From a phage, in sequence record PX393110.1: 64,000 nucleotides of DNA. The stretch is one strand, 5' to 3'. A program made the translations under genes and the position numbers. Shown here one piece after another: positions 14,567 through 37,150 of this stretch; position 1 is the first letter of the stretch, and each line of letters begins with the position of its first letter. The notes beneath the pieces were generated by a model. The model saw nothing but the letters and a program-made list of their open reading frames with translations. It was not told the DNA's origin and made no database searches.

Positions 14567-17500
14567 GTTTAGGCTCCAGAGTTATTTTAGCCTTAAGCTC
14601 GATATACTTACATCCCCAGCCTGTACCGTCGGAACGAATACCGGATTTGGAGTTGAAGCTGTTAGCTATAGAGTTTAACTTCTCCTTCTCCTTAAGGATC
14701 TCTACGTATGGAGTCCACTGGCTATACTGATCGAGAGCTTCCAGTAGTTTCTCCAATGCAGACTCACGACCCTCAACGATCAGCCATCCGGAACCATCTT
14801 CGTTAACTCCATAGTCATCCAGACCCATCAAGGAACCGCCCCGAGCACCGAATTCGATATCAGTGCGCATAGGCATATCCCAGAGTTCACGAATAGCCCC
14901 CTCCATATTCTCACGAGTCTTCTGGAACACCTTGAACATCTCGTTGATTCCGGATGTGGTATCCAAGGAGTCGTGGACCATGATGTGAGTCTCGGCCTCC
15001 ATATTGGACTGCTTAAAGTCCTCATCCAGGAAGTACATACCTGCGCCAGCAACCATCGACGAAGTATTCTGGATAGGATAGTTCACCGAAGTAGAGTTAA
15101 CGTTGGTACCTTCCAGGTTGATACGGTTACCGAAGTAACCATAAGCATACCCAGTCTCGAAGCCATTTTTCTTGGTAGCATCAATCCATGCCTTAAGACC
15201 GGTAAACTTACCGAATACCGTGTCCATCAGATTCTGAGCACGCTCCATATCACCACCAGTAGCAACCATCGCTACCGATTCAAGGCTAGACTGGTATACT
15301 AATGCGAAGTTAATCGCCTTACCACCCTTACGCTCAACATCAGTTACTTCAGGTTCAGACTTCTGGTATGCAATCGAGCTAACGAATCGGTGCATGTCGC
15401 CACCAGATAAGAATACGTTCTTCATATCCGAGTCATCGGCGAACACGCTAACCATCACCAGCTCAGCCTGGCTAAAGTCCTGGTGGTACCACAGGCCACC
15501 CTCCGGCTTAGATACCCAGATGTTACGCAGAGTACTGTCGCCAGGAACGTTATGAATACCTGCCTGCCAACGAGATGTAATCGCAGCCAACGAGTTAAAG
15601 TCCGGAGTCATGATGTAGCAATCTTCACCATCCTGCAACTTCGGATTATCCCAGTCGTACTTACGAACTCGCAGCGGAGGTAAACCATCACGTAGTTTAG
15701 CTGCCCATACCGTCTGGCGTCCTACCTTACCATCAATGTATGTAGCAATCTGTTTGTAGTGACGCTTATACATCTTCAGGTCAACCATCATACGGAACGA
15801 TGTATTCCAGGTAGACTCGTCATCCGGATTAACTCCCAACATCAACTGGTGAATAGCCAATTGGGCATCGAGAACATCCGCTTTAAACTTATTCGTGAAT
15901 CGCTCTTCATAAGCTTCCAGACCGTCCTGGACGCACATGGCAATTAACTCCCGAACATGCTTAGACTCAGCAGTATCCCCGAATTGGATGATCCTGGTTA
16001 AGATCTCATCTACCGGAAACTCCCGGAAGAATTCCCTCTCCAGCTTCTCCGAATCCTTAGGCACGAACCCCTTAGAGATCGCCAGCAGGGTTTTATCCCA
16101 GTAGTCATGCACCTTAAGCTGGTCCATTACAGACCATAGCATGGTACACATCTCTACTTCATCAGTAAGATAGGCTTTCCAGAACTTCTCCTTATTAGCC
16201 TTATCGTTACTGTTAGGGTTGAAGAATCCTGACAGATCAGCAATCTTCCCAGCCAGAGTAGTAACCATCTTACGGCGCTCTTGTCCACCAGGAGTGTACC
16301 ATACGTTCTCGTACGGCAACTCTCGATAGATAAAGTCGCGAGCTGTAAGCATCTGGTCAGGAGGTAACTTAAGGTTAGGGATTAGGCTAACCAAGTGCTC
16401 CGACATTTTGCTCATGCAATAGTCGTACTCTTTAGTCGCCTCTTCGTCATCCCAACGAATACCGTTAGCTTCGAAGATAGATGCCAGGTATGGATGTAAC
16501 ATATATACGTTATACCCATCCTTATACTTATCGTAAAACATCTCGTGGATGAACACACCGTACGCGGAGTCATAGCAGCAGTACTCCCCAAGAATCTCAC
16601 GAGGAATCGCACCCCACTCATATGGGTAGAACGATGCCAAGTAAATAATCTCGGATTCTTCGAGCTCCTCCGATAGTTCGGCTATCTTATCCAGCATAAA
16701 CTGGTTGAAGTTAACAGGAATACGATTCTTAGCCGCCTTAGTCGGAGCCGCTTCCACGAGTTTCTCGTACTCAGCTTTAAGAGCTAGGTGATGCTCAATA
16801 TTGAACTCGCCAGACTGAATCTCTGCAATCTGCTCAGGAGTACAACGCTTCTTCATATCCTTGAAGATAGCTGCCCAACGATCCTTCCATTCGTGTACCG
16901 ACCCTTCCCAGAAGTCTGCATGTAAATAACGACGAGCAGCATCTTTCAACGAGCTCCGTTCGCCATGCATAGTCAGAGTTACAATCGCATCGATAAACTT
17001 GCAGAATACGTCTAACCAATGCCACGTAGTCTTAATCTCGTACGGACAGTTAAACGCCACGATCTGCTCCTGGAACTTAACCAGGAAGTCACGCAAGAAT
17101 CCTAGCTGTTCCGGAGTCTCTTTACCGGTAACATTGTACCATACGGACTTGGCATCCTTATCACCAATCTTCTTAGCGATACTGAATCCAGTGATCCGGA
17201 AGTCTACCGAGAATAAATCAGCTGCGTTAGACTCATAGTCGAGGCCGAGATAGCCTTTGTACCCAGACCACATAATGTCGTTAAGGAACTCCTGGAGGCC
17301 GTTCCAGTCGACGAATTCCCACTCTACATTATATTCGGATTCTTTCTGGCCGAATACCAGAAACTTAAAACGATCAATCCACGAATCAAGTATACCAGGA
17401 TCAGAATCCAGATTACGTTCAACCTGGGCATGGTGCATGACTACAGCTAGCTTAAAGTTATACTCCGGTATGTTACCCAGAGGGAACTTCAGTAGCTTAT

Positions 17501-17834
17501 CCAGAGTCTTCTTATGCGTATAGCCTGGGGATATAGTCGCAGCTAATTGGCGACCCAAAGTCATTACATGCTTAACGCCATGCTTTTCACACAGCTCGTA
17601 AAAGTTGAGACCATCCTTATCACGGATTTCGTCTATGTTAGACAGCTCTTCGAAAGTACCATCTCTGTTGATCTCTATCAGACCAACTTTGTTATGTACC
17701 CCAGCTGTAATTAGCGCTACATCAAGAGTTTGGCCAGCATTCGATGCAGCAAACGGAGGAGCATCATTATTCTCGCGCTCGTCCCCGATAATGACATAGT
17801 CTACTTCGCCAACTAAATTGTGATTCAGAAACAT
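14547..17834 (-). CDS. family A DNA polymerase
   Basis: motif A DFSQAEL (cf. DYSQIELR), motif B KGGKAINFALVYQ (cf. RRxAKxxNFGxxYG), motif C VHDS (cf. VHDE); start refined to MFLNH at 17834. Confidence 0.8.
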   Translation of the reverse strand: MFLNHNLVGEVDYVIIGDERENNDAPPFAASNAGQTLDVALITAGVHNKVGLIEINRDGTFEELSNIDEIRDKDGLNFYELCEKHGVKHVMTLGRQLAATISPGYTHKKTLDKLLKFPLGNIPEYNFKLAVVMHHAQVERNLDSDPGILDSWIDRFKFLVFGQKESEYNVEWEFVDWNGLQEFLNDIMWSGYKGYLGLDYESNAADLFSVDFRITGFSIAKKIGDKDAKSVWYNVTGKETPEQLGFLRDFLVKFQEQIVAFNCPYEIKTTWHWLDVFCKFIDAIVTLTMHGERSSLKDAARRYLHADFWEGSVHEWKDRWAAIFKDMKKRCTPEQIAEIQSGEFNIEHHLALKAEYEKLVEAAPTKAAKNRIPVNFNQFMLDKIAELSEELEESEIIYLASFYPYEWGAIPREILGEYCCYDSAYGVFIHEMFYDKYKDGYNVYMLHPYLASIFEANGIRWDDEEATKEYDYCMSKMSEHLVSLIPNLKLPPDQMLTARDFIYRELPYENVWYTPGGQERRKMVTTLAGKIADLSGFFNPNSNDKANKEKFWKAYLTDEVEMCTMLWSVMDQLKVHDYWDKTLLAISKGFVPKDSEKLEREFFREFPVDEILTRIIQFGDTAESKHVRELIAMCVQDGLEAYEERFTNKFKADVLDAQLAIHQLMLGVNPDDESTWNTSFRMMVDLKMYKRHYKQIATYIDGKVGRQTVWAAKLRDGLPPLRVRKYDWDNPKLQDGEDCYIMTPDFNSLAAITSRWQAGIHNVPGDSTLRNIWVSKPEGGLWYHQDFSQAELVMVSVFADDSDMKNVFLSGGDMHRFVSSIAYQKSEPEVTDVERKGGKAINFALVYQSSLESVAMVATGGDMERAQNLMDTVFGKFTGLKAWIDATKKNGFETGYAYGYFGNRINLEGTNVNSTSVNYPIQNTSSMVAGAGMYFLDEDFKQSNMEAETHIMVHDSLDTTSGINEMFKVFQKTRENMEGAIRELWDMPMRTDIEFGARGGSLMGLDDYGVNEDGSGWLIVEGRESALEKLLEALDQYSQWTPYVEILKEKEKLNSIANSFNSKSGIRSDGTGWGCKYIELKAKITLEPKHGEKAA

Positions 17835-17864
17835 GTTTAACTCCAAAAATAAACCTCCGCCAAT

Positions 17865-20497: not shown

Positions 20498-20813
20498 AGA
20501 CTAAACTCTGACCCGCATGGATGCGTACTGCATGGTTCTTGTTAGAGTTAGTCAGACGAATCCACTTACCTTCGTCTGTAGAGAATACCTGAGCAGTTAA
20601 GCCCAGGTAAGATACAGAAAGATTAGAGATAGAGTCGACAGTTACCGTACTATCTACCGGAAACTCTACCGATGAGCCAGCTCCAACAATGTAGCCACTC
20701 TTACGCAGCTTCATTGGAGCAATACGACTACTGTGCTGATCGTCAGCACCAATTGTCCGAGCGAACGAGCTCTCAACGTAAACAGTTTCAGGAATATTAA
20801 TCTGCATTGCCAA
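20487..20813 (-). CDS. hypothetical protein
   Basis: 108 aa ORF. Confidence 0.3.
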   Translation of the reverse strand: MAMQINIPETVYVESSFARTIGADDQHSSRIAPMKLRKSGYIVGAGSSVEFPVDSTVTVDSISNLSVSYLGLTAQVFSTDEGKWIRLTNSNKNHAVRIHAGQSLVYGN

Positions 20814-21396
20814 TAGTCTCTTTAACCAGGTGCTCTATTGAACTACCATGTGCCATATGGAGAAGAGACTGGAGAGTACCCATCCATACATCATCACTCA
20901 CTTCGTCTTTGTACTTATTGAAGCAGGTACTGAAGATGTTGCGGCAGTTCTCCAGCTCGCTTTCGCCAAAGAAGATGTTACCCATGCTGAACTCAGTCAT
21001 GATCTCACGAGATACCGCAATAGCATCTGCAACTTTACAGATGAACTTAGCTTCGGCAGATGCAGGAGTGCGGAAAGTAGGAAGTACCTCTTCCCAGATT
21101 TCCTGCTCAACTTTATTCAGAGTCTCTTTTAACTCTGGGAAGCGAGCCTTAGCAGTGTAGGGGACATCACCTGTAAAGATCTCTGGAATGTCGTGAACCA
21201 ACGAGTACTGATTTACTTCCAGACCCTGCTCAGCAGTTAAAAATCCATCCATCACCAGTTTCTGAACAATCAGAGTAGAGTAGTAAGTAACTTCGAAGCT
21301 ATGCTCCGAGATAGTAGAGCGATGAGACAGTACTTGCTTACCTGCGAAACGATTCACGTTATTGGTACACACTGGTACCTTAAAAAGATCTTTCAT
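20797..21396 (-). CDS. HD-domain phosphohydrolase, YfbR-like 5'-deoxynucleotidase (putative)
   Basis: H...HD...D pattern: EHSFEVTYYS ... LVHDIPEIFTGDVP. Confidence 0.55.
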   Translation of the reverse strand: MKDLFKVPVCTNNVNRFAGKQVLSHRSTISEHSFEVTYYSTLIVQKLVMDGFLTAEQGLEVNQYSLVHDIPEIFTGDVPYTAKARFPELKETLNKVEQEIWEEVLPTFRTPASAEAKFICKVADAIAVSREIMTEFSMGNIFFGESELENCRNIFSTCFNKYKDEVSDDVWMGTLQSLLHMAHGSSIEHLVKETIGNAD

Positions 21397-21448
21397 GTAA
21401 TTTCTCCTAAGTTACAAAAATAAAGGTATGGAAGTTGCCTCCCACACC

Positions 21449-21479
21449 TTAACAGCCTTTCGAGCCCTAAAAAGAGCGG
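21449..21479 (-). promoter_or_regulatory. class-1 conserved motif, copy 3
   Basis: TTAACAGCCTTTCGAGCCCTAAAAAGAGCGG. Confidence 0.45.
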
Positions 21480-22553
21480 TTATTCCAGAATAAACGGAGA
21501 CTTATCCCCGAGGCGGTTCGCGACCCATTTCACGAATGGTGAATTAACCAGATGCTCGCACTGGATAGACATGTGAGCTCCAGTAGTCTTACATAGATAA
21601 TGAGCGCCTGCTAACCACATCATCACATCCAGAGTTGATCCTGGTTGGAACTCTCGACCAACATCTTCCATTACGTATTCTAGAATACTGTGATCGCTAT
21701 TATAACGAGAAGCAGCATCTTCAAGAGTAGCGATGTAATGCTGGAAGTAGGTACGGATCTTATACCAGGAATTAAGTGATCCGAGATCAATCGTAGTTAC
21801 CGGAGCTTCATTAATGTCGTCAACATAAGCTCGGATATTACTTACCTGCTTCTTGATGTTCGACACTTCCGGATACCAGTGGAGATCATCCGTCATCACC
21901 ACATAGTTGCCCATATCTACTTTGAGCATAGTTGCGATGATTTCCTGGATGATCGTGAACTCCACCAGATTAACGTTAGTCAATCCCCAGATTAGATCAT
22001 TACTACGGTTGAATACCGTGCAGTCCAGACCACCATTACGGTACTTAAACGATAGAGCAATGTTGCAGATCATATCTGCGGTATTGATGCTGCCAATGCT
22101 GTTTACCAGACCTACATCAGAATCACGGCTGGGATCGTGAATAGTAGCCACGCACTTACGGTTACCCAGGTCAGAACGGAGGCGGTCTGTTACAGTCTGG
22201 AGTTGATCGTAGTTATACAGACGCTCACCGTAAGCACCACGCCAGGTAACCATATCATCGCTAAACATCTTAGCGCGAGGAACCATAATCGACATCCAGT
22301 TATCGATTGCATAGCCACCAGACAGTACCCACAATACTTCCCCCATAATTCCGAGGATATTGTCTTTACGTTCTGGATGAGCCATCCAACGATTAATCGG
22401 ATTACTTAACTCAACTACAGCATGACCGATGGATACTACCGCCGAAGAGTTAACAGAAGTTCTGGACTTCTGCAACTCACCAGCCTTATCCATAGTATTG
22501 ATGCTGTTAACCAGGATTTCAGTATTACTGTTACCGCGAATTACCGAGATCAT
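21480..22553 (-). CDS. thymidylate synthase-family enzyme (ThyA homolog; possible pyrimidine C5 hydroxymethyltransferase)
   Basis: ILGIMGEVLWVLSGG (cf. ELLWFLxGxTN), WRGAYGERLY (cf. PVYGxQWR), ADMICNIALSFKY (catalytic Cys region, cf. ALPPCH..QFYV), LDCTVFNRSNDLIWGLTNVNLVEF (cf. LSCQLYQRSxDxxLGxPFNIASYALL). Confidence 0.6.
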   Translation of the reverse strand: MISVIRGNSNTEILVNSINTMDKAGELQKSRTSVNSSAVVSIGHAVVELSNPINRWMAHPERKDNILGIMGEVLWVLSGGYAIDNWMSIMVPRAKMFSDDMVTWRGAYGERLYNYDQLQTVTDRLRSDLGNRKCVATIHDPSRDSDVGLVNSIGSINTADMICNIALSFKYRNGGLDCTVFNRSNDLIWGLTNVNLVEFTIIQEIIATMLKVDMGNYVVMTDDLHWYPEVSNIKKQVSNIRAYVDDINEAPVTTIDLGSLNSWYKIRTYFQHYIATLEDAASRYNSDHSILEYVMEDVGREFQPGSTLDVMMWLAGAHYLCKTTGAHMSIQCEHLVNSPFVKWVANRLGDKSPFILE

Positions 22554-23272
22554 TTAGAGTCCTTACGCACTGAATCAATAGACTTAACTGCAGAGGACAG
22601 TAACTCCAGACGGGCCTCCTGAGGGATCATACCAGATGGCTCGTTCAGGATCATAATACCTTTACCAGTATTAGTAAAACGAGCTGTGATTGATCCAGGA
22701 TACACCGGATGATTCAGAGTTACAGAATTACACAACGCAGCACCGAATCGCTCCTCGTAGGCACGCATAGTTACCTTAAGGAGAGTAGAACTGACTGCTA
22801 CAGAGTATTCAGGATCAACAACACGGAAGTTATTGTCCTCAATACTCTTATCCTTCGTATTGAAGAACAGAGTCATGTTATAATAATCAATAGACTCGTT
22901 ACTGAGACGTAATGCCTCATCACGAGCTTCCTGGCTGGCAAACATACTGTTATGCAGCAGGAAGTAAACGTACGAATCGAATACCGCACGATCACTGACG
23001 ATCAACTCGCCACGATTGTAGGCATCCTTGAACATCTGAGTTCGCTGACGAATAAGACGCAGCTGGAACTCTACCGCTTCCATAGGATCTTCTACAGCTA
23101 AGCGCAGAATATCCATATGGGATGTTACTCCCAGAGGAAGATGGTCACGAGTCTGTACTGCACGGAAGGTACATTCGGTTGATTCTTCCCAACCTTTAGC
23201 CAGGGTAGATTTACCGGTACCCTGCGCACCAGACATAATTACACTGTAGCCTGGGATACTATAGTCTCTCAT
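22550..23272 (-). CDS. P-loop nucleotide/nucleoside kinase
   Basis: Walker A MSGAQGTGKSTLA; start refined to MRDYS (ATG at 23272) with GGAGAGAA upstream. Confidence 0.55.
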   Translation of the reverse strand: MRDYSIPGYSVIMSGAQGTGKSTLAKGWEESTECTFRAVQTRDHLPLGVTSHMDILRLAVEDPMEAVEFQLRLIRQRTQMFKDAYNRGELIVSDRAVFDSYVYFLLHNSMFASQEARDEALRLSNESIDYYNMTLFFNTKDKSIEDNNFRVVDPEYSVAVSSTLLKVTMRAYEERFGAALCNSVTLNHPVYPGSITARFTNTGKGIMILNEPSGMIPQEARLELLSSAVKSIDSVRKDSK

Positions 23273-23304
23273 TATTCTCTCCAATTAAGAATCTTTCCCA
23301 CATT

Positions 23305-23335
23305 TTAACAGCCTTTCAAGACCCTAAAAGAGCGG
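23305..23335 (-). promoter_or_regulatory. class-1 conserved motif, copy 4
   Basis: TTAACAGCCTTTCAAGACCCTAAAAGAGCGG. Confidence 0.45.
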
Positions 23336-23361
23336 ACTAAAAAGGCTGGTGTAAATGTGAA

Positions 23362-24333
23362 CTAGCTAAACTTATACCAGCGAGGTCTCATACGGATCTC
23401 GTGATTCAGTTTATGTAGTTTCGAGAATTCGCAGAATGAGTTGGTGAACATCTGGCGAGTATAGAATCGCTCATCCTCTGGCATGAAGTGGAACCATTTC
23501 TCCGGTTCCCATGAATACCCGAAATGTGCACATATCTCTTTGATGTTCTGATACCACCATTCCACGAATACCTGATAACCACAGGGAGGATTCTGGTCAT
23601 TAATCATGTACCATACCCCATCCTGAGTCCCAGGTCCACATACGATAGCGTCATTATCTGTATACGCAGTCTCTTTAGAGTAGGACATAGTTGCCCAGCA
23701 TTGATATGCCATGAACGGACCTAATCCAGATACCTGTAACAGATGCTCGATAGCCTCGGTAGCGAACGGAGACTTCCATGCCCATAAGATAGGATCACTG
23801 TAGGTCTTCACCAGATAGGCTCTGGCAGCTACACTGTACTTAATATCCTCTGGACATACTTCATTAGCCATCTTAACTGCTGTGCTAAGGAAGTAGGCAT
23901 TTGATTGCTGTGGAGCGGTGAACGGAGGACCATCCTCATAACGACGTAGCTCTTCGCGACCCATGTTATGTATGTCGTCATAGCTCATCTCATAAAGAGG
24001 AAGGACTCTGCGGAAGCGATCCATATATGAATCACCACGGTTTATCATCTGGAAGAGTACTACATTAAGTGCTTTACTCTCCCAGCTTAAAGAATCGTTC
24101 TCCAGAATGTTCTTAATAGCCCACACTGTTTCACGATCGTGCTTACGGAACACGTTAGTGAATTTGAACTTACTAATCCACTTATGTTCCGTCCACGGAG
24201 GAGGCAGCTTAAGCACCTCCTTCTTATAATAAACCTCTGTACGTTCACGGTTATACTCCACATACTCCCGTAACTCCTCAGGATTTATCATCCCAAGGAG
24301 TCCTTCGTAATGCAGACCTAACGGTGTTGACAT
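23362..24333 (-). CDS. hypothetical protein (323 aa), translationally coupled to upstream GT
   Basis: start ATG overlaps upstream stop (TAATG at 24331-24335); Trp/aromatic-rich, no recognisable motif. Confidence 0.45.
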   Translation of the reverse strand: MSTPLGLHYEGLLGMINPEELREYVEYNRERTEVYYKKEVLKLPPPWTEHKWISKFKFTNVFRKHDRETVWAIKNILENDSLSWESKALNVVLFQMINRGDSYMDRFRRVLPLYEMSYDDIHNMGREELRRYEDGPPFTAPQQSNAYFLSTAVKMANEVCPEDIKYSVAARAYLVKTYSDPILWAWKSPFATEAIEHLLQVSGLGPFMAYQCWATMSYSKETAYTDNDAIVCGPGTQDGVWYMINDQNPPCGYQVFVEWWYQNIKEICAHFGYSWEPEKWFHFMPEDERFYTRQMFTNSFCEFSKLHKLNHEIRMRPRWYKFS

Positions 24334-25412
24334 TAAAGAATACCTTCTTTGGTAAAGTAGTCGATTACTTCATCCTGAAGTTCTTGTGCGTAATCCTTGC
24401 GCAGATACAGATTCTCATACTGATGTTTCAGCAGAGCATCACGATCTTTCAGTTTCTCTGCAATCTCCGCATTACTGGAGACGATCAGAGGAGCCAGCAG
24501 CTCTTCGGGGACGCCGCTCCGGATTATTGTTCCGGCAGCATCTTTATCCACCAACATCAGAGTACCAGAGCTCAGGTATTCATAATAACGGTTAGGTGGG
24601 CTGGTATAGAACGAGTTACTAGAGTTCCAGTCTTCAATAAGCAGTACCGCTGCGTATTTAGCCACTTCATCCAGCATCTCTGACAGCTTAAACTTAGGCA
24701 GCCAGTTAATAGGAGCAGCAGGCCCCAGCCACTTACGTTCTTTAGGATCCAGCTCTTCCCAGTTTTCCTGCTCGTAGCCGTCAAATCCAGCAAGACCACC
24801 AGTATGTTTAGCGATAGACATCTGAGCTTTGTAGCTAGGCACCGACATAAACAGTTCCAGACCATCCTGCTGGGAGAAGTACTGAGTGAACTTATGGAAG
24901 CGACCTTCACGAGCAGCACCGTAATACAGCAGGCTATTGTCTGGTTTATCAGATGAGCCGTAGCGAGGCTTACGACCAGGAACGTAGGTAAGACGGTTCC
25001 AGTTAATGTGGTGATAGTTCTCTTCGCTAGGGGAGTACTGATTACCCCAGGAAGTACGCTCGAATGCTGCTACTACTTTAAATGTCGTAGCTGCTGTGAT
25101 GTGTCGCCACTGCGGACCCTGGATACGCATACGTGATGAATAATCTTGACCAATCCAGTAAAACTTAGCTCCGAGGTCCGCCTGGTCTACCCAGAATTTA
25201 TACATCTCATCGCGGAACTTACAGAAGGTAGGAACACCATTGACGGCGATGATCACGTCATATTTGGTGCCATCTTCCATAGCCTTAACAAACTTAGGAG
25301 TATCATCCAGCAAGTCCGCCTGAAGTCCGTAGGCTAACCAGGATGCCAGAGTGTTACTGGCGATGATGGATTTATCGCTGCATGGCGAAAAGTTAGTTAC
25401 TGCAATTTTCAT
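24333..25412 (-). CDS. GT-B fold glycosyltransferase, phage DNA beta-glucosyltransferase-like (putative)
   Basis: MKIAVTNF... N-terminus, LLYYGAAREGRFHKFTQYFSQQDG and NRYYEYLSSGTLMLVD segments resemble T4 beta-glucosyltransferase as recalled from memory; not searched. Confidence 0.4.
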   Translation of the reverse strand: MKIAVTNFSPCSDKSIIASNTLASWLAYGLQADLLDDTPKFVKAMEDGTKYDVIIAVNGVPTFCKFRDEMYKFWVDQADLGAKFYWIGQDYSSRMRIQGPQWRHITAATTFKVVAAFERTSWGNQYSPSEENYHHINWNRLTYVPGRKPRYGSSDKPDNSLLYYGAAREGRFHKFTQYFSQQDGLELFMSVPSYKAQMSIAKHTGGLAGFDGYEQENWEELDPKERKWLGPAAPINWLPKFKLSEMLDEVAKYAAVLLIEDWNSSNSFYTSPPNRYYEYLSSGTLMLVDKDAAGTIIRSGVPEELLAPLIVSSNAEIAEKLKDRDALLKHQYENLYLRKDYAQELQDEVIDYFTKEGIL

Positions 25413-25440
25413 ATTTAATTTCTCCGTAGGCTGTCACAAT

Positions 25441-25470
25441 GTAACAGCCTTTTAGCTCATCAAAGAAGCG
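25441..25470 (-). promoter_or_regulatory. class-1 conserved motif, copy 5 (variant)
   Basis: GTAACAGCCTTTTAGCTCATCAAAGAAGCG. Confidence 0.35.
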
Positions 25471-26494
25471 AATTAGCTGATGCCCAACTCAGCCACTTAT
25501 CATTGAGATCAGTTAAGTAGGAATAGTCTTTGTTTAATCCGAATACCGTACGGTTAGTTCCATCGAACTTCATTACCCCAGCACCAGGAGCTCGGATAAT
25601 TGCATCTTCGGTAGCCGTACAATACTCTTTCAAGTATTCCTGGATGTTGGGACGAATACGACGGAACGAGCTATCTGCAGAGTCATAGTGGAACATATCT
25701 GCACAATGCCACTGTACGTAGGACTTATCTGGACGGCTAAGCAGCTCATTACGAGTTACCATATCTTTCGGAGAGTAGCCTAGCTTAGCTACGGTGACTT
25801 CGTGAATACCACCGCCATTAGAAGAGGTGTCCATTAACCAGTTCTCATCCCAGTAGAACGAGCTACCAGTACCGGTTACCTGGCCCACTTTCCATCCCAT
25901 CGCCATACCTTTAAACAACAGGTAGCAATCCTCACCTACAGTGAGTTGCTGGAAGGTCTTATCGAACAGCCAGAACATCTTCTCGCTAGTCTTGACCATA
26001 ATACCCAGGTCAGTAGCCGGAGCAGTGTTATTATGGGACTGACGATCGCAGAGTTCAACAATCTTGTAGTTACGGTTCTTGAAGCTACGGACGAACGCCA
26101 TCTCAAACTCAGATCCCTCGAAGTCGATAATGGACCGATCCAGATGGAAGATATCGTCGGCGAACCAGACATCATCATCCACGAAGTAGCAGATGTCTGG
26201 GCACCAGTCCTGCTTCTCCATTACAATCCATGCTTTATCCAGAGCATGGGCACGGATTTCTCCGATTACCGGATTTTCGTACTTAGGGCTATGACAGAAA
26301 TTAAATTGCTCATCCCCACCAAACTGCTCTTCCAGAATTGCCTTATCTTCTTCGGAGGCATCCTGAATAAAGTAGAAGAAGCGATACTCAATAGAGTCGT
26401 CAGTCTTTTTAGCATCTTTGAACGACTGAATCTGACGGAGTACCGACTTCAGACGATGATAGGTTGGGATGATAAAAGCTACTTTGGTGGTCAT
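25460..26494 (-). CDS. family-2-like (GT-A fold) glycosyltransferase
   Basis: VAFIIPTYHR N-terminus and DxD motif YFVDDDVWF. Confidence 0.5.
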   Translation of the reverse strand: MTTKVAFIIPTYHRLKSVLRQIQSFKDAKKTDDSIEYRFFYFIQDASEEDKAILEEQFGGDEQFNFCHSPKYENPVIGEIRAHALDKAWIVMEKQDWCPDICYFVDDDVWFADDIFHLDRSIIDFEGSEFEMAFVRSFKNRNYKIVELCDRQSHNNTAPATDLGIMVKTSEKMFWLFDKTFQQLTVGEDCYLLFKGMAMGWKVGQVTGTGSSFYWDENWLMDTSSNGGGIHEVTVAKLGYSPKDMVTRNELLSRPDKSYVQWHCADMFHYDSADSSFRRIRPNIQEYLKEYCTATEDAIIRAPGAGVMKFDGTNRTVFGLNKDYSYLTDLNDKWLSWASANSLL

Positions 26495-26500
26495 AATTAT

Positions 26501-27112
26501 TTATCCAATTTGACGAACTAAGCGAAACCCTTCGGCGTACGGCCACTGGGCGGAATATCCACGTAAGGTGGCTAGGGCTAAGATACTCTGGGTATCTCGG
26601 TCTGACTTAATCTGGGAGTCGAATCGTCCCATAGCCTGGCACTTACACTCAATATCGTCCTTATTCAGACGCTCGAAGTAATTAGGTTCCATCTGACCGA
26701 ACTGGGTCAGGGACTCGGCATACTCATATTCCAGGATAAGCCAGTTATACGCTCGGAGAGCTACACGAGCAGCATGATTAACTAGTTGATGGTCCTGGTG
26801 TAGGCTACTGAACGGAATATAGACTACATCCGGCCTGATTTTAGCAACATAGTCCGCAATATCCTTAGCCAATTGCGGAATATCCTTCTGAGTCATACCA
26901 TCGCCTGTGGAGGCATCGTTACGCTCCAGGCAATGTACTTCTTTGATATTCGGATAGACACCGAATGCTGCTTCGGCTTCGCCACGACGGGTCTCGTCCG
27001 GAGCAGTTACTTCGAGGATGAAGAATTGGTCATCGCGGAATTTGCTCATAATACCTCCGCAACCCAGAATCTCATCATCGTGATGTGGGCTGATAATCAG
27101 TCGTGACTTCAT
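26501..27112 (-). CDS. PIG-L/LmbE-family N-acetylglucosaminyl deacetylase
   Basis: LIISPHHDDEILGCGG (family hallmark AHPDDE) and second His-rich motif SSLHQDHQLVNH. Confidence 0.6.
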   Translation of the reverse strand: MKSRLIISPHHDDEILGCGGIMSKFRDDQFFILEVTAPDETRRGEAEAAFGVYPNIKEVHCLERNDASTGDGMTQKDIPQLAKDIADYVAKIRPDVVYIPFSSLHQDHQLVNHAARVALRAYNWLILEYEYAESLTQFGQMEPNYFERLNKDDIECKCQAMGRFDSQIKSDRDTQSILALATLRGYSAQWPYAEGFRLVRQIG

Positions 27113-27127
27113 TATTAATCCTCGCTA

Positions 27128-27163
27128 CACAAAAATGGGGTTAGGCCGTAGAGACCTAACCCC
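27128..27163 (-). terminator. intrinsic terminator-like hairpin
   Basis: minus-strand RNA: GGGGUUAGG-loop-CCUAACCCC followed by AUUUUUGUG; sits between class-1 copy 6 and the LmbE start. Confidence 0.45.
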
Positions 27164-27179
27164 GTACGCCTCTGACACC

Positions 27180-27210
27180 TTAACAGCCTTTTAGGTCATC
27201 AAACAGGCGG
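27180..27210 (-). promoter_or_regulatory. class-1 conserved motif, copy 6
   Basis: TTAACAGCCTTTTAGGTCATCAAACAGGCGG; overlaps the 3' end of the transporter gene. Confidence 0.4.
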
Positions 27211-28581
27211 AGTTTCCTTAGCCAAGAATACTTTAGGTACAAAGATCTTGAGGAACCCGAATAGAATACACAATACCCCAATCAGTACCGGAACAGCCGA
27301 TACAGCTACCAGAGTCTTCGTTACAGTTACTACGTCGCCACCTGCCCAGTTAAGTGCAGCAGCAACTACACCCATGCTTACAATCCAGAATACACGAGTT
27401 CTAGGAGCGGTCATGGACTCTACCGTAATACCTGCTGAGTCATGACCTGTAATAAAGAACAGGATCACAGACACGAGGGTAATTACCGAGAATATCCATC
27501 CGCCTGGGAAATTAGCCAGAAGCTGGAAGATATCCTGAGCACCATGTTGTAGACCAGCTACACCGAATACGGTAAACCAGACGTTACTGATGATGGTAGG
27601 GAACAGTACACATCCGAGGATCAGTTCGCGAATAGTACGGCCGTAAGAGATACGTGCCACAAACGCTCCGACGAATAATGCCCAACCTACCCAGGCTGCA
27701 TAGTAAGCATAAGGCCAGCTAGCCAGCCATTGCTTCTCTTCAGCAGTACTGCCGATGTTTACTGACATAGGAATAATCTGGAGCAGATAGCTACCAGAAT
27801 AGGTGATGGTCTTCCAGAGGTATTCGAAGAATGTACCACTTACAGCAACGAATGCCATAATAGATAGAGCTACGATTACATTATATCTGGATAACCACTT
27901 AACCCCACGATCGACACCAGTTACGGCACTAAGTACAGTACCCAGAGTCAGGAGCGCGATAATGGTGTAAGGACCAACATCCACTCCCAGGAACTCTTTA
28001 AATCCGGAACTGATCGGGCCTACTGCGTAGACGAACGACAGGGTTAAGCCTATGATGGTAGAGAAGAGTAAGCTTATCGTATTAAGGTTATTCAGAGCTC
28101 GGGACTTGAATAACTGATTAAGCGGACGGTCTTCACCACGTACATGCAGTAAGTACCCGAATGCCACCCCTACGACTGCATAAACTGCCCATGCGTTAAG
28201 TCCCCAGTCAAAGAAGGTAGTTACCATATTCTGACGTTCGGACATACCCTCCTGCTGATGGTACATAGGTTCGAGTACACCATAATAAATCATGGATACA
28301 CCCATACCGGTACTAAACATCATGGAGTAATAGGTAAAGCGATTATATTTCGGAGCACCTTTACCCAGCTTAATGTTACCATGCTTGCTGAATACAAAGA
28401 ATGCCAGGAACGCTAGGAAGATCAGCGAAGACCAGGTAAATATGAATCCATACTGAGATATGAATACAGACTTACTCCAGTCCATTACAGCACCAAACTG
28501 GGTGGGAGCTAACATAATGGCGAGTATGATACCCACCGTTACTAGCACCGTCCCCCAGGTAACTACCTTTGAATCTGACAT
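27199..28581 (-). CDS. BCCT-family (betaine/carnitine/choline-type) secondary transporter
   Basis: multi-TM protein; FSKHGNIKLGKGAPKYNRFTYYSMMFSTGMGVSMIYYGVLEP (cf. FSRYGNIRLG...WFAMLFxAGMGIGLxFxGVxEP) and VGAFVARISYGRTIREL (cf. GMFLARISRGRTIREF). Confidence 0.7.
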   Translation of the reverse strand: MSDSKVVTWGTVLVTVGIILAIMLAPTQFGAVMDWSKSVFISQYGFIFTWSSLIFLAFLAFFVFSKHGNIKLGKGAPKYNRFTYYSMMFSTGMGVSMIYYGVLEPMYHQQEGMSERQNMVTTFFDWGLNAWAVYAVVGVAFGYLLHVRGEDRPLNQLFKSRALNNLNTISLLFSTIIGLTLSFVYAVGPISSGFKEFLGVDVGPYTIIALLTLGTVLSAVTGVDRGVKWLSRYNVIVALSIMAFVAVSGTFFEYLWKTITYSGSYLLQIIPMSVNIGSTAEEKQWLASWPYAYYAAWVGWALFVGAFVARISYGRTIRELILGCVLFPTIISNVWFTVFGVAGLQHGAQDIFQLLANFPGGWIFSVITLVSVILFFITGHDSAGITVESMTAPRTRVFWIVSMGVVAAALNWAGGDVVTVTKTLVAVSAVPVLIGVLCILFGFLKIFVPKVFLAKETPPV

Positions 28582-28584
28582 TGA

Positions 28585-29493
28585 TTATTCCTCAATTACG
28601 CCCTTAGCGATTAACTGGCGACGGACGTATGCGTAGCCAGCAGGTGAAGTAGCGAGGACGATGTCCGCACTACGGAAGTTGGTTTCGATATAGAAGCACT
28701 CCTGAAGATCCCGCGTACAGAAGAGCTCAGTGCTCATCATACCCTCGCGTACGTTACATGCGTCTGCAACGAATTGCGCAACATCTTCGAAGTGGTCTAC
28801 CGAATGACTATAGCCGAATCCACGGGCATCAGTAGATATAACGTAGTTATGGCAGTACGGAGTGAAGTCAGTATCTTCGTAGGATTTACCCTGGATAGTG
28901 AAAATATCTGCATAATCCTTGAACCCGCTCGGGCTAACCAGAAGATCCCAGGCAACTACCATACCGTCGATAACATCTGCTTGAAGTACCAGAGAAGTAG
29001 TATATTCGTCCGGCGCCTTATCACAGACCAAAATTGGGGAGTCCCCCAGAAGGTCCGACATAGTGCCTGCACCCTTGCCCCCGTGAACACGATCACGGCG
29101 TACAAACGCCTCCTGAGGCTTCTGGTACAGTCTAAACGACGGTACAATCAGCGAATCAGGCATAGTTCCCAGATTAGCTTCGGAGCGAAGGCAGGATAAT
29201 TGGTCAGCTTTAGACCACGTACTTTCGATAGCGTGCAGATCGTTACCGATTTTGGTATAGATGTAGCTTTCCGGATTGCGGTACTTACCCTGATTCAGCT
29301 CTTCGATAACCGAGTCGAAATAAGGAAGTCGTACTGATCCCTCACGAGGAGCAGTTAACGCTACTGAACCATGCTTGGTATGATCCTGATCAACTACCAT
29401 AACCTGGTCCAGACTTACACCCATCTTAAGAATCTGGGATAGTGTAGCTGCTGTGTGGTTAGTGCAGCCAATCATCAAATCTAACTTCTTCAT
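28585..29493 (-). CDS. hypothetical enzyme, possibly ATP-grasp-like ligase
   Basis: glycine-rich HGGKGAG and C-terminal FYIETNFRSAD resembling the ATP-grasp E-x-N-x-R motif; weak. Confidence 0.3.
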   Translation of the reverse strand: MKKLDLMIGCTNHTAATLSQILKMGVSLDQVMVVDQDHTKHGSVALTAPREGSVRLPYFDSVIEELNQGKYRNPESYIYTKIGNDLHAIESTWSKADQLSCLRSEANLGTMPDSLIVPSFRLYQKPQEAFVRRDRVHGGKGAGTMSDLLGDSPILVCDKAPDEYTTSLVLQADVIDGMVVAWDLLVSPSGFKDYADIFTIQGKSYEDTDFTPYCHNYVISTDARGFGYSHSVDHFEDVAQFVADACNVREGMMSTELFCTRDLQECFYIETNFRSADIVLATSPAGYAYVRRQLIAKGVIEE

Positions 29494-29520
29494 TTTAATT
29501 CCTCAGTTAACTTGTACAAC

Positions 29521-29550
29521 CTAACAGCCTTTCGAACCCTAAAAAGAGCG
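29521..29550 (-). promoter_or_regulatory. class-1 conserved motif, copy 7 (variant)
   Basis: CTAACAGCCTTTCGAACCCTAAAAAGAGCG; about 27 nt upstream of ATG with GAGGA in between. Confidence 0.4.
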
Positions 29551-29594
29551 AAATAATAGATATCTAGCCACCTCGTAAGATGGCTATGTATATA

Positions 29595-30335
29595 TTACTT
29601 TAATTCGGAGAGATCTGCTATCTTCACCTTAGCTGTTACATCCCAGATTCCTTCACCAAATCCGGTATCTTCCAGCAGCTTAGGCACTTCACGTTTCTGT
29701 ACCTTAGACTGCTCGTACTTAAGCAGAGGAATATTACCGGTCTTATCCGATTGATCCCACAGATAAGTAGCAGCACCAATGTTATCGAACAGTGCGAGAT
29801 CTGGATTAAACTGGGTAAGGAGTCGGCAGTCCCAGTGAGATTTATGTTCCTCGAAAGGATTAGTCTCCGTACCACGCTGACGATACTCGTAGTTAGGAGT
29901 ACCGATCACGATTTTAGCCTTAGACTGGAATAGCTTAGACAACACCATAAGCCCATCTTCGCTATCCAGATGCTCCAACACATCTAGCCAGATAATAGTG
30001 CCGAATTTATCCAGCTCTTCAATAGGAAGATCTTTCAGCAGTTCAACGATATTGCAGATGTAGATATCGCTATATACATTTACACTGCCTTTGATGTAGT
30101 CTTCGCAGATGTCCAGACCTGTGATCTGACCTTCGAATCCTGCGTTACGGAGAGCTAGACCGATCTCTCCACGACCTAATCCCATATCCAGGATTGGCCC
30201 GGAGATAATTTCGTTACGGAGCATCCATTGGAGAAAGTGCTTCTGGACTAAGTAGGAGGTACCTCCGTTGCCCAGTGAAGCCTTCGTGACCTTAGTACCA
30301 GGAACGAAGTTACACTCGATATGTTTACCAAACAT
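29595..30335 (-). CDS. class I SAM-dependent methyltransferase (small-molecule type)
   Basis: motif I ILDMGLGRGEIG; post-I acidic GLDICEDY; TIIWLDVLEHL. Confidence 0.55.
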   Translation of the reverse strand: MFGKHIECNFVPGTKVTKASLGNGGTSYLVQKHFLQWMLRNEIISGPILDMGLGRGEIGLALRNAGFEGQITGLDICEDYIKGSVNVYSDIYICNIVELLKDLPIEELDKFGTIIWLDVLEHLDSEDGLMVLSKLFQSKAKIVIGTPNYEYRQRGTETNPFEEHKSHWDCRLLTQFNPDLALFDNIGAATYLWDQSDKTGNIPLLKYEQSKVQKREVPKLLEDTGFGEGIWDVTAKVKIADLSELK

Positions 30336-30361
30336 GTTCTGTCCTCATTAGTTTCGACACC

Positions 30362-30392
30362 TTAACAGCCTTTGGAGCCGTAAAAGAAGCGG
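30362..30392 (-). promoter_or_regulatory. class-1 conserved motif, copy 8
   Basis: TTAACAGCCTTTGGAGCCGTAAAAGAAGCGG; lies between a terminator hairpin and the SD/ATG of the methyltransferase. Confidence 0.5.
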
Positions 30393-30404
30393 TATTGTAC
30401 ATAT

Positions 30405-34384: not shown

Positions 34385-37150
34385 CTACTCTTCCATAAAC
34401 GTAGTTACGTTATTGGAAAGGTAGGCACCGATTTTAGTATTATATCTCTGGAACGTAGGTACATGAGTAACCAGGATGATGTGATTAACCGGAATGTCCT
34501 GGAGAGCATCGATAGCTATGTCCAGAGTATTCACATCCAGATTCTTCAACGACTCATCCAGAATCAGGCATCCAGCACCTTTACTAAGGCTAATCAGCTT
34601 ACCGATGAACAGTACGTCCACCAGGTTCTGCTGACCACCAGAGAGATCAGAATACGGAATCAGGAACTCACCGACTTTGTATTGAACATCAAAGTCAATC
34701 TTGATATTTCCATTAGCCTGTTCACGAACGGTAGAGATGACCATATCACCACCAGTCATCATCGCAGCCACTTCCTTAAAGATAGAAGCAGTTACGTCAC
34801 CGCTATTAGTGAACAGATTCTGATACTCCACCAGCTTCTGATACTTAGGCTGAAGAGTAGCCAGCTCAGAGTTAGCCTTATCCAGCTTCGTCTGAGCATC
34901 GTCCATACGAGACTTAAGACTACGAAGAGTAGCCATAGCTCCGATAGTGGAGTTAATCTCGATAAGCTCTTGTTCCAGCTTAGCGACTTCCTCTTCCAGA
35001 ACTTGCACGGAGGAATAGGACTTAGTCTTATTCTTAAGCACTTCCACATCGCTATTGACGGTATGAATCTTCTGGCGAAGAGTGGCCACATCGTTTAGCA
35101 GACCGGACTTACGACGGAGTTCGACTAATTCGTTATTCTTAAGAGCCAGCTTCTGTCGGATTTCATCAGACTTAGGAGCCTTACTTATCTCAGCTTCCAC
35201 AGCATCCAACTTAGACACAGATACAGATCCCTGTGTCTCGAGCTCATCCATCTTACTTCTGATAGAGCTCTGTACCTGCTTAATGTCCTCTTCCTTAAGA
35301 GACTGTTTACAGGTAGGACAGGTAGTGGGAATATTCCGCATTTCTGTCTCTAACTTAGTCAACTCCTGTTCCAGACGAGTCAACTCCTTAGTTAGAGATT
35401 CGCTCTGGTTATGGAGCGAACGAATATTCCCTTCTACTTCCGACACTTCGGCATCTAGCAGAGTAATTTCGCCACGGACATTAGCGAGTGCGGAGTTAAC
35501 CTCTTCTTCGCTAAAGTCTATATTGAACGCAGCCAGCGAGTCTTCCAACATCTGAAGACTCTGTAGCTTACTATCCAAATTACCCAGCTCCCGGATCTTC
35601 TGACGAATATCATCAATCTGAGGAAGGATTCGGGATTTAGCCTCTTCCAGATCACTTACGTCCTTGAGTCTGGAGAAATCGTGATCCTCCATCGTCTTAA
35701 GGACTTCTTCCTGAGCAGTAACCTGAGTCTGGAGATTACCGATCTCTACCTTACAGTTCTTAGCCGAGGCCTTTGCGACAGCTTCGTACTGGTTAATTAC
35801 GGTAAGACCAAGCATCTTCGTTATCAGGTTGATACGCTCGTTGAATCCGAACTGGCTAAGGAACGGAGGACTGTTCTGGGAGCGGTACAGAAGATCGAAG
35901 TGTTCGAGGAATGGCAGCATCTCCCAGAGCTTAGCTTCACGCTCACGAATACTTCCGCCATCCATCTCATCGCCATCAATCCAGACTCGGAACGTCTGAC
36001 CACCAGCCCAATGGCGACTGATCAGGAATTCACGACCACCATACTCCAGCATCACTTCTACCAGAAGATGGTCCTGACCGAGTCTCACCACGTTACGAGG
36101 ACTGTCGCTACCAGTTAAGCAGTAGTTCAGAGCTCGTAACAGCGAGGATTTACCATTACCGGTTTCGCCGTAGAGATAAGTCAGACCTTTCTTAAAGTCC
36201 AGCTCCAACTTATCGATGCTACGGAAGTTCTCTACCTTAATGCTATTTAAGGTAAAGTTGAGGTCGAATACCGACTCGGAACGATCAACGTGGGTAGACA
36301 TCTCATCATGGATATCTTTAAGACCTTTAGCCCGAACGACTTTATCGATAACTTCTTCGACATCAATAGACTTAACCGAGATGCGTGAAGCATCCATCAT
36401 CTGAGCTCGTTCACGAACTACCAGATGTGGGTAATTGTCCAATCCGACAGGAACCTCATCTTCCCAGTACATCTTTAAGTACTTAAAGGAATCAGACTCT
36501 ACCGGAACCCGCTGCCAGGAAAGATCTTTGAGATCCAGCAGTACCAGACTGCCTTCCTGACTATCACCCATCCCATGAGGAATAGGCACGTTCACCGAGT
36601 GAGTATGACCGATGCTGATAGGACGGTGGATGTCACCCGCAAATCCCAGATCGTACTTAGTATCGTCGAACTCCTGACCGAACATCGAGGACAGGGTAAT
36701 ATGGCCGATTAGGACATCTACTTTATCCTGGATGAAGCTAAAGTCCTGAGTCGGACGCCAGTCGCTGAAGGCGACCTTACGGCCACCTAAGTTCAGGATC
36801 TTACCATCGACATACTCCGCCTTACCAGCCAGGATCGGCACCAGCGAGTTCTGATAGTGATCAGCATCTACCGATTTGGAGTTAATGTCGTGGTTACCCA
36901 GAATGTAGTAAATCTCGGAGAACTGCTCACCGAGGATGTCCATAAACTGGGAAGTAGCATGTGCAATCTTAGGCTCGTGCTGAGCCTTATGCACCAAGTC
37001 GCCAGCGATAGATAGGCAAGTAACTTTATGTTCCTTACCCATCTCCACCATACGATGAGCCAATCTGATAAACTGCTTTAGCCGAAACCCTTCCGAGTTA
37101 TGTTGCTGAAACTCATGAATATGAATATCAGCAGCAATTAACATTTTCAT
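34385..37150 (-). CDS. fused Mre11-Rad50 (SbcD-SbcC) recombination nuclease/ATPase
   Basis: N-terminal phosphoesterase motifs (ADIHIH, GDLVH, GNHD, GHTH); then Rad50 Walker A YGETGNGKSS, long coiled coil, ABC signature LSGGQQ; one uninterrupted 921-aa ORF. Confidence 0.65.
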   Translation of the reverse strand: MKMLIAADIHIHEFQQHNSEGFRLKQFIRLAHRMVEMGKEHKVTCLSIAGDLVHKAQHEPKIAHATSQFMDILGEQFSEIYYILGNHDINSKSVDADHYQNSLVPILAGKAEYVDGKILNLGGRKVAFSDWRPTQDFSFIQDKVDVLIGHITLSSMFGQEFDDTKYDLGFAGDIHRPISIGHTHSVNVPIPHGMGDSQEGSLVLLDLKDLSWQRVPVESDSFKYLKMYWEDEVPVGLDNYPHLVVRERAQMMDASRISVKSIDVEEVIDKVVRAKGLKDIHDEMSTHVDRSESVFDLNFTLNSIKVENFRSIDKLELDFKKGLTYLYGETGNGKSSLLRALNYCLTGSDSPRNVVRLGQDHLLVEVMLEYGGREFLISRHWAGGQTFRVWIDGDEMDGGSIREREAKLWEMLPFLEHFDLLYRSQNSPPFLSQFGFNERINLITKMLGLTVINQYEAVAKASAKNCKVEIGNLQTQVTAQEEVLKTMEDHDFSRLKDVSDLEEAKSRILPQIDDIRQKIRELGNLDSKLQSLQMLEDSLAAFNIDFSEEEVNSALANVRGEITLLDAEVSEVEGNIRSLHNQSESLTKELTRLEQELTKLETEMRNIPTTCPTCKQSLKEEDIKQVQSSIRSKMDELETQGSVSVSKLDAVEAEISKAPKSDEIRQKLALKNNELVELRRKSGLLNDVATLRQKIHTVNSDVEVLKNKTKSYSSVQVLEEEVAKLEQELIEINSTIGAMATLRSLKSRMDDAQTKLDKANSELATLQPKYQKLVEYQNLFTNSGDVTASIFKEVAAMMTGGDMVISTVREQANGNIKIDFDVQYKVGEFLIPYSDLSGGQQNLVDVLFIGKLISLSKGAGCLILDESLKNLDVNTLDIAIDALQDIPVNHIILVTHVPTFQRYNTKIGAYLSNNVTTFMEE

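Follow-up and report, generated by a model that had tools for sequence, protein, structure and literature searches.

Glycosylation of phage DNA has been established experimentally for 5-hydroxymethylcytosine (5hmC), which is modified by phage enzymes of both the GT-A and GT-B folds (bioRxiv 10.1101/2023.12.21.572611). In kinetoplastids, the base J pathway combines a JBP thymine hydroxylase with the glucosyltransferase JGT to place O-glycosylated 5-hydroxymethyluracil (5-hmU) in DNA. To our knowledge, the proven phage DNA glycosyltransferases (GTs) act on 5hmC, and glycosylated thymine derivatives have been characterized chemically in just a few phages that are difficult to sequence, with their enzymes unassigned. 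Here we describe a six-gene unit within a 64,000-nucleotide stretch of phage DNA (sequence record PX393110.1; hereafter the window), which encodes an LmbE/PIG-L deacetylase, a probable GT-A glycosyltransferase, a GT-B glycosyltransferase related to that of T4, a PF18723 protein, a P-loop kinase and a thymidylate synthase (TS)-like hydroxymethylase. Judging from these sequences and their genomic associations, we consider it on balance probable that the unit is a thymidine-hypermodification cassette of a coliphage of the IME392 type, in which the 5-hmU of the DNA would be O-glycosylated, given a second sugar and then N-deacetylated.

The closest described enzyme is the T4 beta-glucosyltransferase (b-gt; CAZy GT63), which the GT-B protein resembles in full-length profile homology, in size (359 versus 351 aa) and in its catalytic Asp and Arg/Arg/Arg/Glu set; the T4 gene also adjoins a TS-like hydroxymethylase gene. 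The partners differ, pointing here to 5-hmU rather than 5hmC and including a PF18723 protein that T4 lacks. With base J the locus shares its predicted chemistry, and about a quarter of the viral loci encoding this GT-B family pair it with a TET/JBP dioxygenase (PMC13229309); JGT, however, is a GT-A enzyme rather than a BGT-like GT-B, and the window system is predicted to make 5-hmU before replication with its TS-like enzyme and to tailor the sugar further. Phages ViI, M6, PaMx11 and phiW-14, which use a 5-hydroxymethyldeoxyuridine (5-hmdU) DNA kinase (5-HMUDK) and an amino-acid:DNA transferase, likewise carry a deoxyuridine monophosphate (dUMP) hydroxymethylase-type gene and PF18723 clustered near replication genes (PMC8989533), whereas the window has glycosyltransferases and a deacetylase in place of PF18748, PF18724 and pyridoxal-phosphate (PLP), radical S-adenosylmethionine (SAM) and flavin (FAD) tailoring enzymes. 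Phage 5hmC glycan clusters similarly set successive GT-A and GT-B genes, the latter T4-beta-GT-like, beside a base-hydroxymethylating enzyme, but the enzymes tested there use 5hmC produced by a methyltransferase together with TET, with no deacetylase or PF18723 partner reported (bioRxiv 10.1101/2023.12.21.572611). The 'RP13-like' phages SP-15, YerA41 and Carin-5 have in common with this phage a polymerase subfamily, GT and deacetylase genes close to the polymerase gene, and a predicted replacement of thymine, but their sugars sit on a (di)hydroxypentyl linker with phosphate (PMC12686479) and their GT genes have no detectable similarity to the two in the window. The LmbE/PIG-L deacetylases MshB, BshB, TT1542 and diacetylchitobiose deacetylase match the window's deacetylase in Pfam family, AHPDD-type and HxDH motifs and size; the substrate proposed here, a DNA-borne sugar, would be unprecedented for the family.

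Four of the six genes had been singled out in a sequence-only reading of the window as a glycan-decoration module, and we verified them on the minus strand as open reading frames (ORFs) encoding 203 aa (LmbE; 26501..27112), 344 aa (GT-A; 25460..26494), 359 aa (GT-B; 24333..25412) and 323 aa (PF18723; 23362..24333). Over positions 21400-30400 the window is 96.3% identical in nucleotide sequence to Escherichia phage vB_EcoM_IME392 (IME392) and 94.2% to EP_H11, in whose records the four genes are labelled hypothetical; we found no description of these GT or LmbE genes in either phage in the literature. The four proteins are 95-100% identical to their IME392 and EP_H11 counterparts and recur at 63-76% identity on two contigs of metagenomic origin (L004 and L005), their order unchanged; the six-gene unit also keeps its order there, at 63-84%. 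Compared with L004, codon differences that are synonymous only are about as numerous across the genes as those that change the amino acid (124 and 90, respectively, in the GT-B gene), and base composition matches the rest of the window. Because identity, synteny and this codon pattern are conserved, the ORFs are to be taken as genes, under purifying selection by comparative sequence evidence; a chance cluster of ORFs is ruled out by the codon comparison with L004.

The unit is compact, its genes separated by overlaps of 1 and 4 bases or by short gaps. From its 5' end, the LmbE gene lies 6 bases from the GT-A gene, which lies 47 bases from the GT-B gene; the latter's stop overlaps the PF18723 start by one base in the TAATG at 24333, just as the sequence-only reading had it. 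After 77 bases follow the kinase (244 aa; 22550..23284, minus strand), whose stop overlaps by 4 bases the start of the TS-like gene (21480..22553, minus strand), the last of the unit. Terminator-like hairpins flank these six co-directional genes, upstream at 27137..27163 (minus strand; 11-bp stem with 7 GC and a T-run) and downstream, 3' of the TS-like gene, at 21423..21450 (minus strand; 12-bp stem with a T-run). Beyond the 3' boundary come a gene for an HD-domain, YfbR-like 5'-deoxynucleotidase/dNTPase (20797..21396, minus strand) and then primase, helicase and a family-A DNA polymerase, so that the surroundings are an early replication and nucleotide-metabolism block and not a structural one. 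The LmbE, GT-A, GT-B and PF18723 proteins all lack transmembrane segments, which together with the replication-gene context excludes a membrane-associated lipopolysaccharide or capsule glycosyltransferase operon; PADLOC returned zero matches for an anti-defence reading. The context is one of DNA base modification, as supposed in the sequence-only reading, rather than envelope sugar synthesis, and neighbouring families, related viral loci, hairpins and the lack of transmembrane segments all bear this out.

The likeness of the GT-B protein to T4 b-gt, proposed in the sequence-only reading, held up: hhalign of a 75-sequence family profile against T4 b-gt gave a probability of 96.4% (E 1e-9) over 288 columns spanning residues 5-349 of 351, whereas a generic GT4 GT-B control reached 0.75%. 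D90, present in 70 of the 75 family members, aligns with T4 D100, and five positions invariant in all 75 align with T4 residues as follows: R168 with R191, R171 with R195, D261 with D258, R275 with R269 and E278 with E272. We take T4 R191, R195, R269 and E272, from the BGT structure papers, to be UDP-binding residues; D100 is catalytic (bioRxiv 10.1101/2023.12.21.572611). Pairwise identity to T4 b-gt is about 20% (BLASTP E 0.008), the sole Pfam match is a sub-threshold one to Glyco_trans_1_2 (E 0.017), which 5 of the 75 members also hit weakly, and neither the T4-GT Pfam models nor a PDB sequence search gave a match. The profile alignment establishes genuine, if distant, homology of the 359-aa protein with the T4 enzyme.

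Two close homologs of this protein were found among 5.8 billion clustered proteins, and a single-protein search of 185,579 species genomes returned no close relative. An exhaustive profile search extended the family to 288 or more cluster representatives, around 300 aa long and all metagenomic, and ten clusters sampled for their names yielded nothing informative. Across 50,697 cultured-phage records, full-length members occur in IME392 and EP_H11 only. We surveyed 80 IMG/VR viral loci encoding a family member, counting neighbours within a few kilobases. A TS-like hydroxymethylase and/or PF18723 stands beside the family gene in 50, commonly with PF18723, GT and TS in direct succession, and a ParB-like and/or TET/JBP dioxygenase gene in 24; no locus has both sets and six have neither. 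As phage TET/JBP enzymes linked to ParB act as thymine dioxygenases (PMC13229309), 74 of the 80 loci pair the GT with one of two known routes to 5-hmU in DNA. On this genomic evidence the BGT-like family appears to be tied almost exclusively to enzymes that produce 5-hmU, and from that association, which suggests the acceptor, the window protein is a candidate 5-hmU DNA glycosyltransferase.

The surveyed loci hold further tailoring genes. SAM methyltransferases and radical SAM/SPASM enzymes are among the neighbours, a kinase of the 5-hmdU DNA kinase type of phage ZC01 occurs in 26 loci, and an HD YfbR-like gene accompanies the TS-like gene in 19; a co-located set of TS, clade-1 Pplase, 5'-deoxynucleotidase and glucosyltransferase has been described in uncultured pelagiphages (PMC9599517). 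The closest GT relatives outside the coliphages directly follow ParB-like and TET/JBP genes (L006-L023, L034, L038, L042-L044, L068 and L081), in some cases with a radical SAM gene next in line, and these loci are candidates for post-replicative pathways from thymine to glycosyl-hmU. A richer tailoring set surrounds the BGT-like GT in L030 (5338-12815), which reads PF18723, NUMOD3 homing endonuclease, SAM methyltransferase, GT, radical SAM/SPASM enzyme, ZC01-type kinase and TS.

The 323-aa protein translationally coupled to the GT-B had been called unknown, and here the first reading needs correction: it is a full-length match to PF18723 (E 4.8e-35; 121.7 bits against a cut-off of 25; profile positions 5-277 of 281), as well as to phrog_2396. 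This family, formerly aGPT-Pplase clade 1 and now "5-hmdU DNA kinase, helical domain", is a marker of 5-hmdU-modifying phages and owes its Pfam name, HMUDK_hel, to its fusion with a DNA kinase in SP10 gp186 (PMC5889632, Table 3). Relatives found by tblastn belong to thymidine-hypermodifying phages, ViI-like and PaMx11-like ones among them. In an alignment of 34 sequences Cys301-Glu302 and Lys305 never vary, and F-x-N-x-x-R-x-x-D and GPG motifs are also present; the window protein keeps R31, F58, N60, R63, D66, G233-P-G235, C301-E302 and K305, and departs at six sites of at least 88% conservation (H50 for D, Q95 for R, A170 for K, T215 and T225 for D, and D238 for R). Around a number of these sites its sequence is closer to the ViI-like than to the PaMx11-like subgroup.

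The remaining genes of the unit and its 3' neighbour would supply the modified nucleotide. The TS-like protein matches Pfam Thymidylat_synt (E 4.7e-12) and phrog_3676 (7e-71), and shares 29% of its residues with the PaMx11-type enzyme of ZC01 against 18% with the T4 deoxycytidine monophosphate (dCMP) hydroxymethylase, with no Asp at the T4 Asp179 column; it is named here a putative dUMP hydroxymethylase. The kinase matches Pfam AAA_28 (E 2.1e-9), with weak matches to deoxynucleoside kinase (dNK) and thymidylate kinase models and none to PF18748, the 5-hmdU DNA kinase model; its ORF starts at the TTG at 23284, four codons upstream of the ATG at 23272 annotated in IME392. It has no relatives in PDB, and its relatives are confined to Acinetobacter phage Ab1-TPeters and Ralstonia phage RP13. 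As Ab1-TPeters keeps a kinase-TS-HD block in a genome that, searched whole, lacks PF18723 and a BGT-like GT, and as PF18748 gives no match, a nucleotide kinase is more likely than a DNA kinase, and by sequence the protein is more likely a (hydroxymethyl)dUMP kinase. The HD protein (Pfam YfbR-like, E 1.7e-14; phrog_7076) probably clears canonical thymidine or uridine nucleotides. The family-A polymerase (14547-17846, minus strand; 1099 aa, with the Pfam polymerase domain at residues 766-1001 only) is of a subfamily described in the literature as fused to a uracil-DNA glycosylase (UDG) domain. From the aGPT-Pplase, dCTP deaminase and UDG-fused polymerase of IME392 and EP_H11, earlier work predicted that both phages modify T (bioRxiv 10.1101/2025.03.26.645540; PMC12686479).

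The two genes at the 5' end of the unit would concern the sugar. Membership of the 203-aa protein in the LmbE/PIG-L family is solid on sequence grounds, as had been claimed, with 52.9 bits against a cut-off of 28.2 for PF02585 (E 6.7e-14), a phrog_11796 match at 2.5e-21, and PDB matches to TT1542 (1.9e-6) and diacetylchitobiose deacetylase (1.7e-4). The zinc motifs are intact: P9-H10-H11-D12-D13-E14 and H105-Q-D107-H108 align with AHPDD and HPDH of TT1542, residues to which we presume the zinc-binding and catalytic roles assigned in the MshB and TT1542 literature. The protein falls far under every NCBIfam equivalog cut-off, the closest models being BshB1 (25 bits against 182.5) and BshB2. Homologs also turned up in large Campylobacter phages of the CP220/CPt10 group, several Vibrio phages and Stenotrophomonas phage Summit.

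The 344-aa protein is a probable GT-A fold glycosyltransferase on the evidence of its motifs and a low-confidence structure model. The motifs noted at the outset (IIPTYHR and DDD here, HHDDE in the LmbE protein) are all in the translations, the last two within VDDD and PHHDDE, and IIPTYHR (residues 8-14), D106-D107-D108 and E188-D189-C-Y191 are invariant in four homologs down to 62% identity, a shallow alignment that gives the invariance limited weight. The resulting pattern of R14, D106-D108 and E188-D189-x-Y191 resembles the signature "R...DDD...EDY/F" of phage DNA GT-A enzymes (bioRxiv 10.1101/2023.12.21.572611). The claim of a GT-A with a DxD motif stands as regards the motifs and lacks a curated, PDB-sequence or remote-homolog match. 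Among structures, polysaccharide or lipid-carrier glycosyltransferases come closest to the model, and the matches also include TarP, which proven phage DNA GT-A enzymes have been reported to hit in PDB (bioRxiv 10.1101/2023.12.21.572611). Polysaccharide and lipopolysaccharide enzymes with membrane anchors had been named beforehand as matches that would speak against DNA glycosylation; polysaccharide or lipid-carrier enzymes do lead the list, with TarP included and no anchor in the protein. Polysaccharide and lipid-carrier transferases dominate the solved GT-A structures.

Taken together, these families and their context point to the following scheme. The TS-like hydroxymethylase, P-loop kinase and HD nucleotidase would swap dTTP for 5-hydroxymethyl-dUTP before replication, so that the phage DNA would carry 5-hmU, most likely the modified base. 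The GT-B would then move a hexose or N-acetylhexosamine from a host UDP-sugar onto the hydroxymethyl group, yielding a base-J-like O-glycoside; the module encodes no nucleotide-sugar enzyme, and Escherichia coli provides UDP-glucose (UDP-Glc) and UDP-N-acetylglucosamine (UDP-GlcNAc). The coupled PF18723 protein, a helix-hairpin-helix protein, probably partners the GT-B, recognizing 5-hmU in DNA or flipping the base out. The GT-A-like enzyme may add a second sugar, and LmbE would strip the N-acetyl group from a residue of the GlcNAc type to leave a free, protonatable amine in the major groove; a disaccharide with a free amine had also been proposed in the sequence-only reading. Such an amine on the sugar would fit a recurrent theme of thymidine hypermodifications, which include the cationic putrescinyl, aminoethyl, aminoethoxymethyl and diaminopropyl groups (PMC8989533; PMC13458397), and oligosaccharide-modified thymidine occurs in relatives that have this polymerase type, with an N-acetylhexosamine (HexNAc) residue in Carin-5 (PMC12686479). 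The expected gain is protection against host nucleases.

Several observations weigh against this scheme. GT-A and LmbE genes are absent from all 80 other BGT-like loci, so that what links them to DNA is their position in the operon. The 344-aa protein has no match in Pfam, PHROG or NCBIfam and none in PDB by sequence or profile search; beyond three close relatives, none appeared in a profile search of the 5.8-billion-protein database or in IMG/VR or JGI metagenomes. Its structure model has a mean predicted local distance difference test (pLDDT) score of 46, and hhalign against E. coli ArnC reaches a non-significant probability of 8.4% with residues 2-38 alone aligned, an in-register N-terminus. 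Actinophage LmbE homologs lie near structural genes. For the PF18723 protein, the ParB/TET loci carry the GT without it, and the clade-1 paralog was dispensable in a reconstitution with M6 lysate (PMC8989533). The specificity of the hydroxymethylase for dUMP or dCMP is not provable from sequence, and the search for a DNA kinase and an amino-acid:DNA transferase covered 64 kb of the approximately 115-kb genome.

Three other explanations were considered. The unit could serve two purposes, with the BGT-like GT and PF18723 alone working on DNA and the GT-A and LmbE on some other target, whether proteins of the virion, a glycan of the host envelope or a small GlcNAc conjugate resembling bacillithiol or mycothiol. 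We regard this division as rather unlikely, although it would account for the missing GT-A and LmbE in the surveyed loci and for the GT-A model's polysaccharide and lipid-carrier matches; moreover, the homologs near structural genes, in mycobacteriophages and Arthrobacter phages, are annotated as glucosaminyl deacetylases, and the nearest NCBIfam models, BshB1 and BshB2, act on a small molecule. The layout argues otherwise, as LmbE and GT-A share a terminator-bounded unit with the DNA GT and the hydroxymethylase, 6 and 47 bases from the next gene and in an order kept on L004 and L005, within the replication block rather than a structural one; membrane anchors and signal-like segments are missing from both, and TarP figures among the GT-A matches.

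Somewhat less probable still is a route like that of ViI and M6 through a phosphorylated intermediate, in which the 244-aa kinase and PF18723 would form a two-piece 5-hmdU DNA kinase and a sugar or other nucleophile would displace the phosphate, or build on it to give a phospho-linked glycan as in SP-15. The fusion in SP10 gp186 (PMC5889632, Table 3), the adjoining position of the PF18723 and kinase genes, 77 bases apart, the ZC01-type kinases in about a third of the BGT-like loci and the phosphate in the SP-15, YerA41 and Carin-5 modifications (PMC12686479) all suit it, and the invariant Cys-Glu of PF18723 recalls the catalytic Cys/Glu pair of clade 2 (PMC8989533). That parallel is an analogy only, since hhalign of the clade-1 profile against a clade-2 amino-acid:DNA transferase gave 0.66%, with no alignable similarity. 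The kinase itself lacks a PF18748 match and any relative in the 80 loci, and its Ab1-TPeters homolog serves in a kinase-TS-HD block of a genome without PF18723. The 5-hmdU DNA kinase of ZC01, used as a query, found nothing in the window at E<=1, and the ZC01 amino-acid:DNA transferase (PF18724, clade 2) nothing in the window or the 80 loci, in a single-sequence search that a distant member could escape; no 5-HMUDK has been found in EP_H11 or IME392 (bioRxiv 10.1101/2025.03.26.645540). An acceptor of 5hmC, as in T4, seems to us very improbable. The closest characterized relative of the GT does work on that base, and sequence alone cannot assign the TS-like enzyme, but PF18723 is specific to 5-hmdU systems (PMC5889632), the hydroxymethylase is nearer the PaMx11-type dUMP enzyme than T4 gp42 and has no Asp at the D179 column, and the dCTP deaminase and UDG-fused polymerase of IME392 and EP_H11 are typical of T-modified phages (PMC12686479; bioRxiv 10.1101/2025.03.26.645540). 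The thymine dioxygenases that adjoin the nearest GT relatives (PMC13229309) also argue for 5-hmU.

Glycosylation of 5-hmU in DNA, with subsequent tailoring, is thus the reading we retain, and parts of it were anticipated: IME392 and EP_H11 were predicted to be T-modified, and an association of GT-B with TS-like genes had been seen at survey level. What is new is the identification of the specific BGT-like family and of how nearly exclusively it accompanies enzymes that produce 5-hmU, its association with PF18723, the extension by LmbE and GT-A, and the finding that cultured models exist among E. coli phages only, which lend themselves readily to nucleoside mass spectrometry and enzyme assays. 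If the reading is correct, it would provide the first enzymology for the joining of sugars to phage thymine, a possible function for clade-1 aGPT-Pplase, which has long gone unexplained, and the first case of sugar de-N-acetylation on DNA, along with new tools for labelling 5-hmU and new targets of, or escape routes from, modification-dependent defences. More speculatively, and with considerably less confidence, we postulate a bacterial-virus counterpart of base J, in which the 5-hmU O-glycosylated by the BGT-like enzyme would bear an amino-disaccharide, its GlcNAc converted to cationic glucosamine by deacetylation while on the DNA; a 302-aa orphan and a SAM methyltransferase encoded upstream might then acylate or methylate the amine with a compound brought in by a BCCT transporter, and PF18723 would act as a general base-presenting adaptor for 5-hmU in both kinase- and glycosyltransferase-based pathways. 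We know of no demonstration of any of these chemistries on phage thymine.

The genes invoked in this extended proposal lie beyond the upstream hairpin, which is a strong one and separates the LmbE gene from the 302-aa orphan (28585..29493, minus strand) and, 3 bases downstream of it, the BCCT transporter gene (27199..28581, minus strand; Pfam BCCT E 4.3e-92). The pair also stands next to LmbE in L004 and L005. The orphan has no match in Pfam, PHROG, NCBIfam, PADLOC, PDB or phages, and is possibly ATP-grasp-like to judge from its motifs HGGKGAG and IETNFR; a role of the pair in tailoring or substrate supply is possible. GT-A, LmbE, BCCT, orphan and methyltransferase are all absent from the 80 loci and constitute a lineage-specific extension.

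A slot of varying content separates the topoisomerase genes from the module. In the window it holds one gene, for a class I SAM methyltransferase of 246 aa (29595..30335, minus strand; Methyltransf_25 4.1e-5 and related models), and in L004 (3033-6937) and L005 a weak DXD glycosyltransferase-like gene, orphans of 340 and 286 aa, two small genes and a gene resembling phosphatidylserine decarboxylase (31.3 bits, cut-off 22). Ab1-TPeters (L089, 11704-16832) has two GT4-family glycosyltransferases, one of them a match to 'GT4-conflict', directly after its topoisomerase genes, which suggests an exchangeable sugar-modification slot in this phage lineage.

Elsewhere in the window, this approximately 115-kb phage encodes a split multisubunit-type RNA polymerase, with beta'-type Rpb1 domains 1-2 and 3-5 in separate genes (5330-6898 and 8777-10291, minus strand). 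A 921-aa ORF (34385-37150, minus strand) combines matches to a calcineurin-like phosphoesterase (Mre11/SbcD-like), an SMC/Rad50-like ATPase and a zinc hook, and appears to be a fused SbcCD-type nuclease. Genes for tRNA-Met (CAT) and tRNA-Arg (TCT) lie within 46979-47276 (minus strand).

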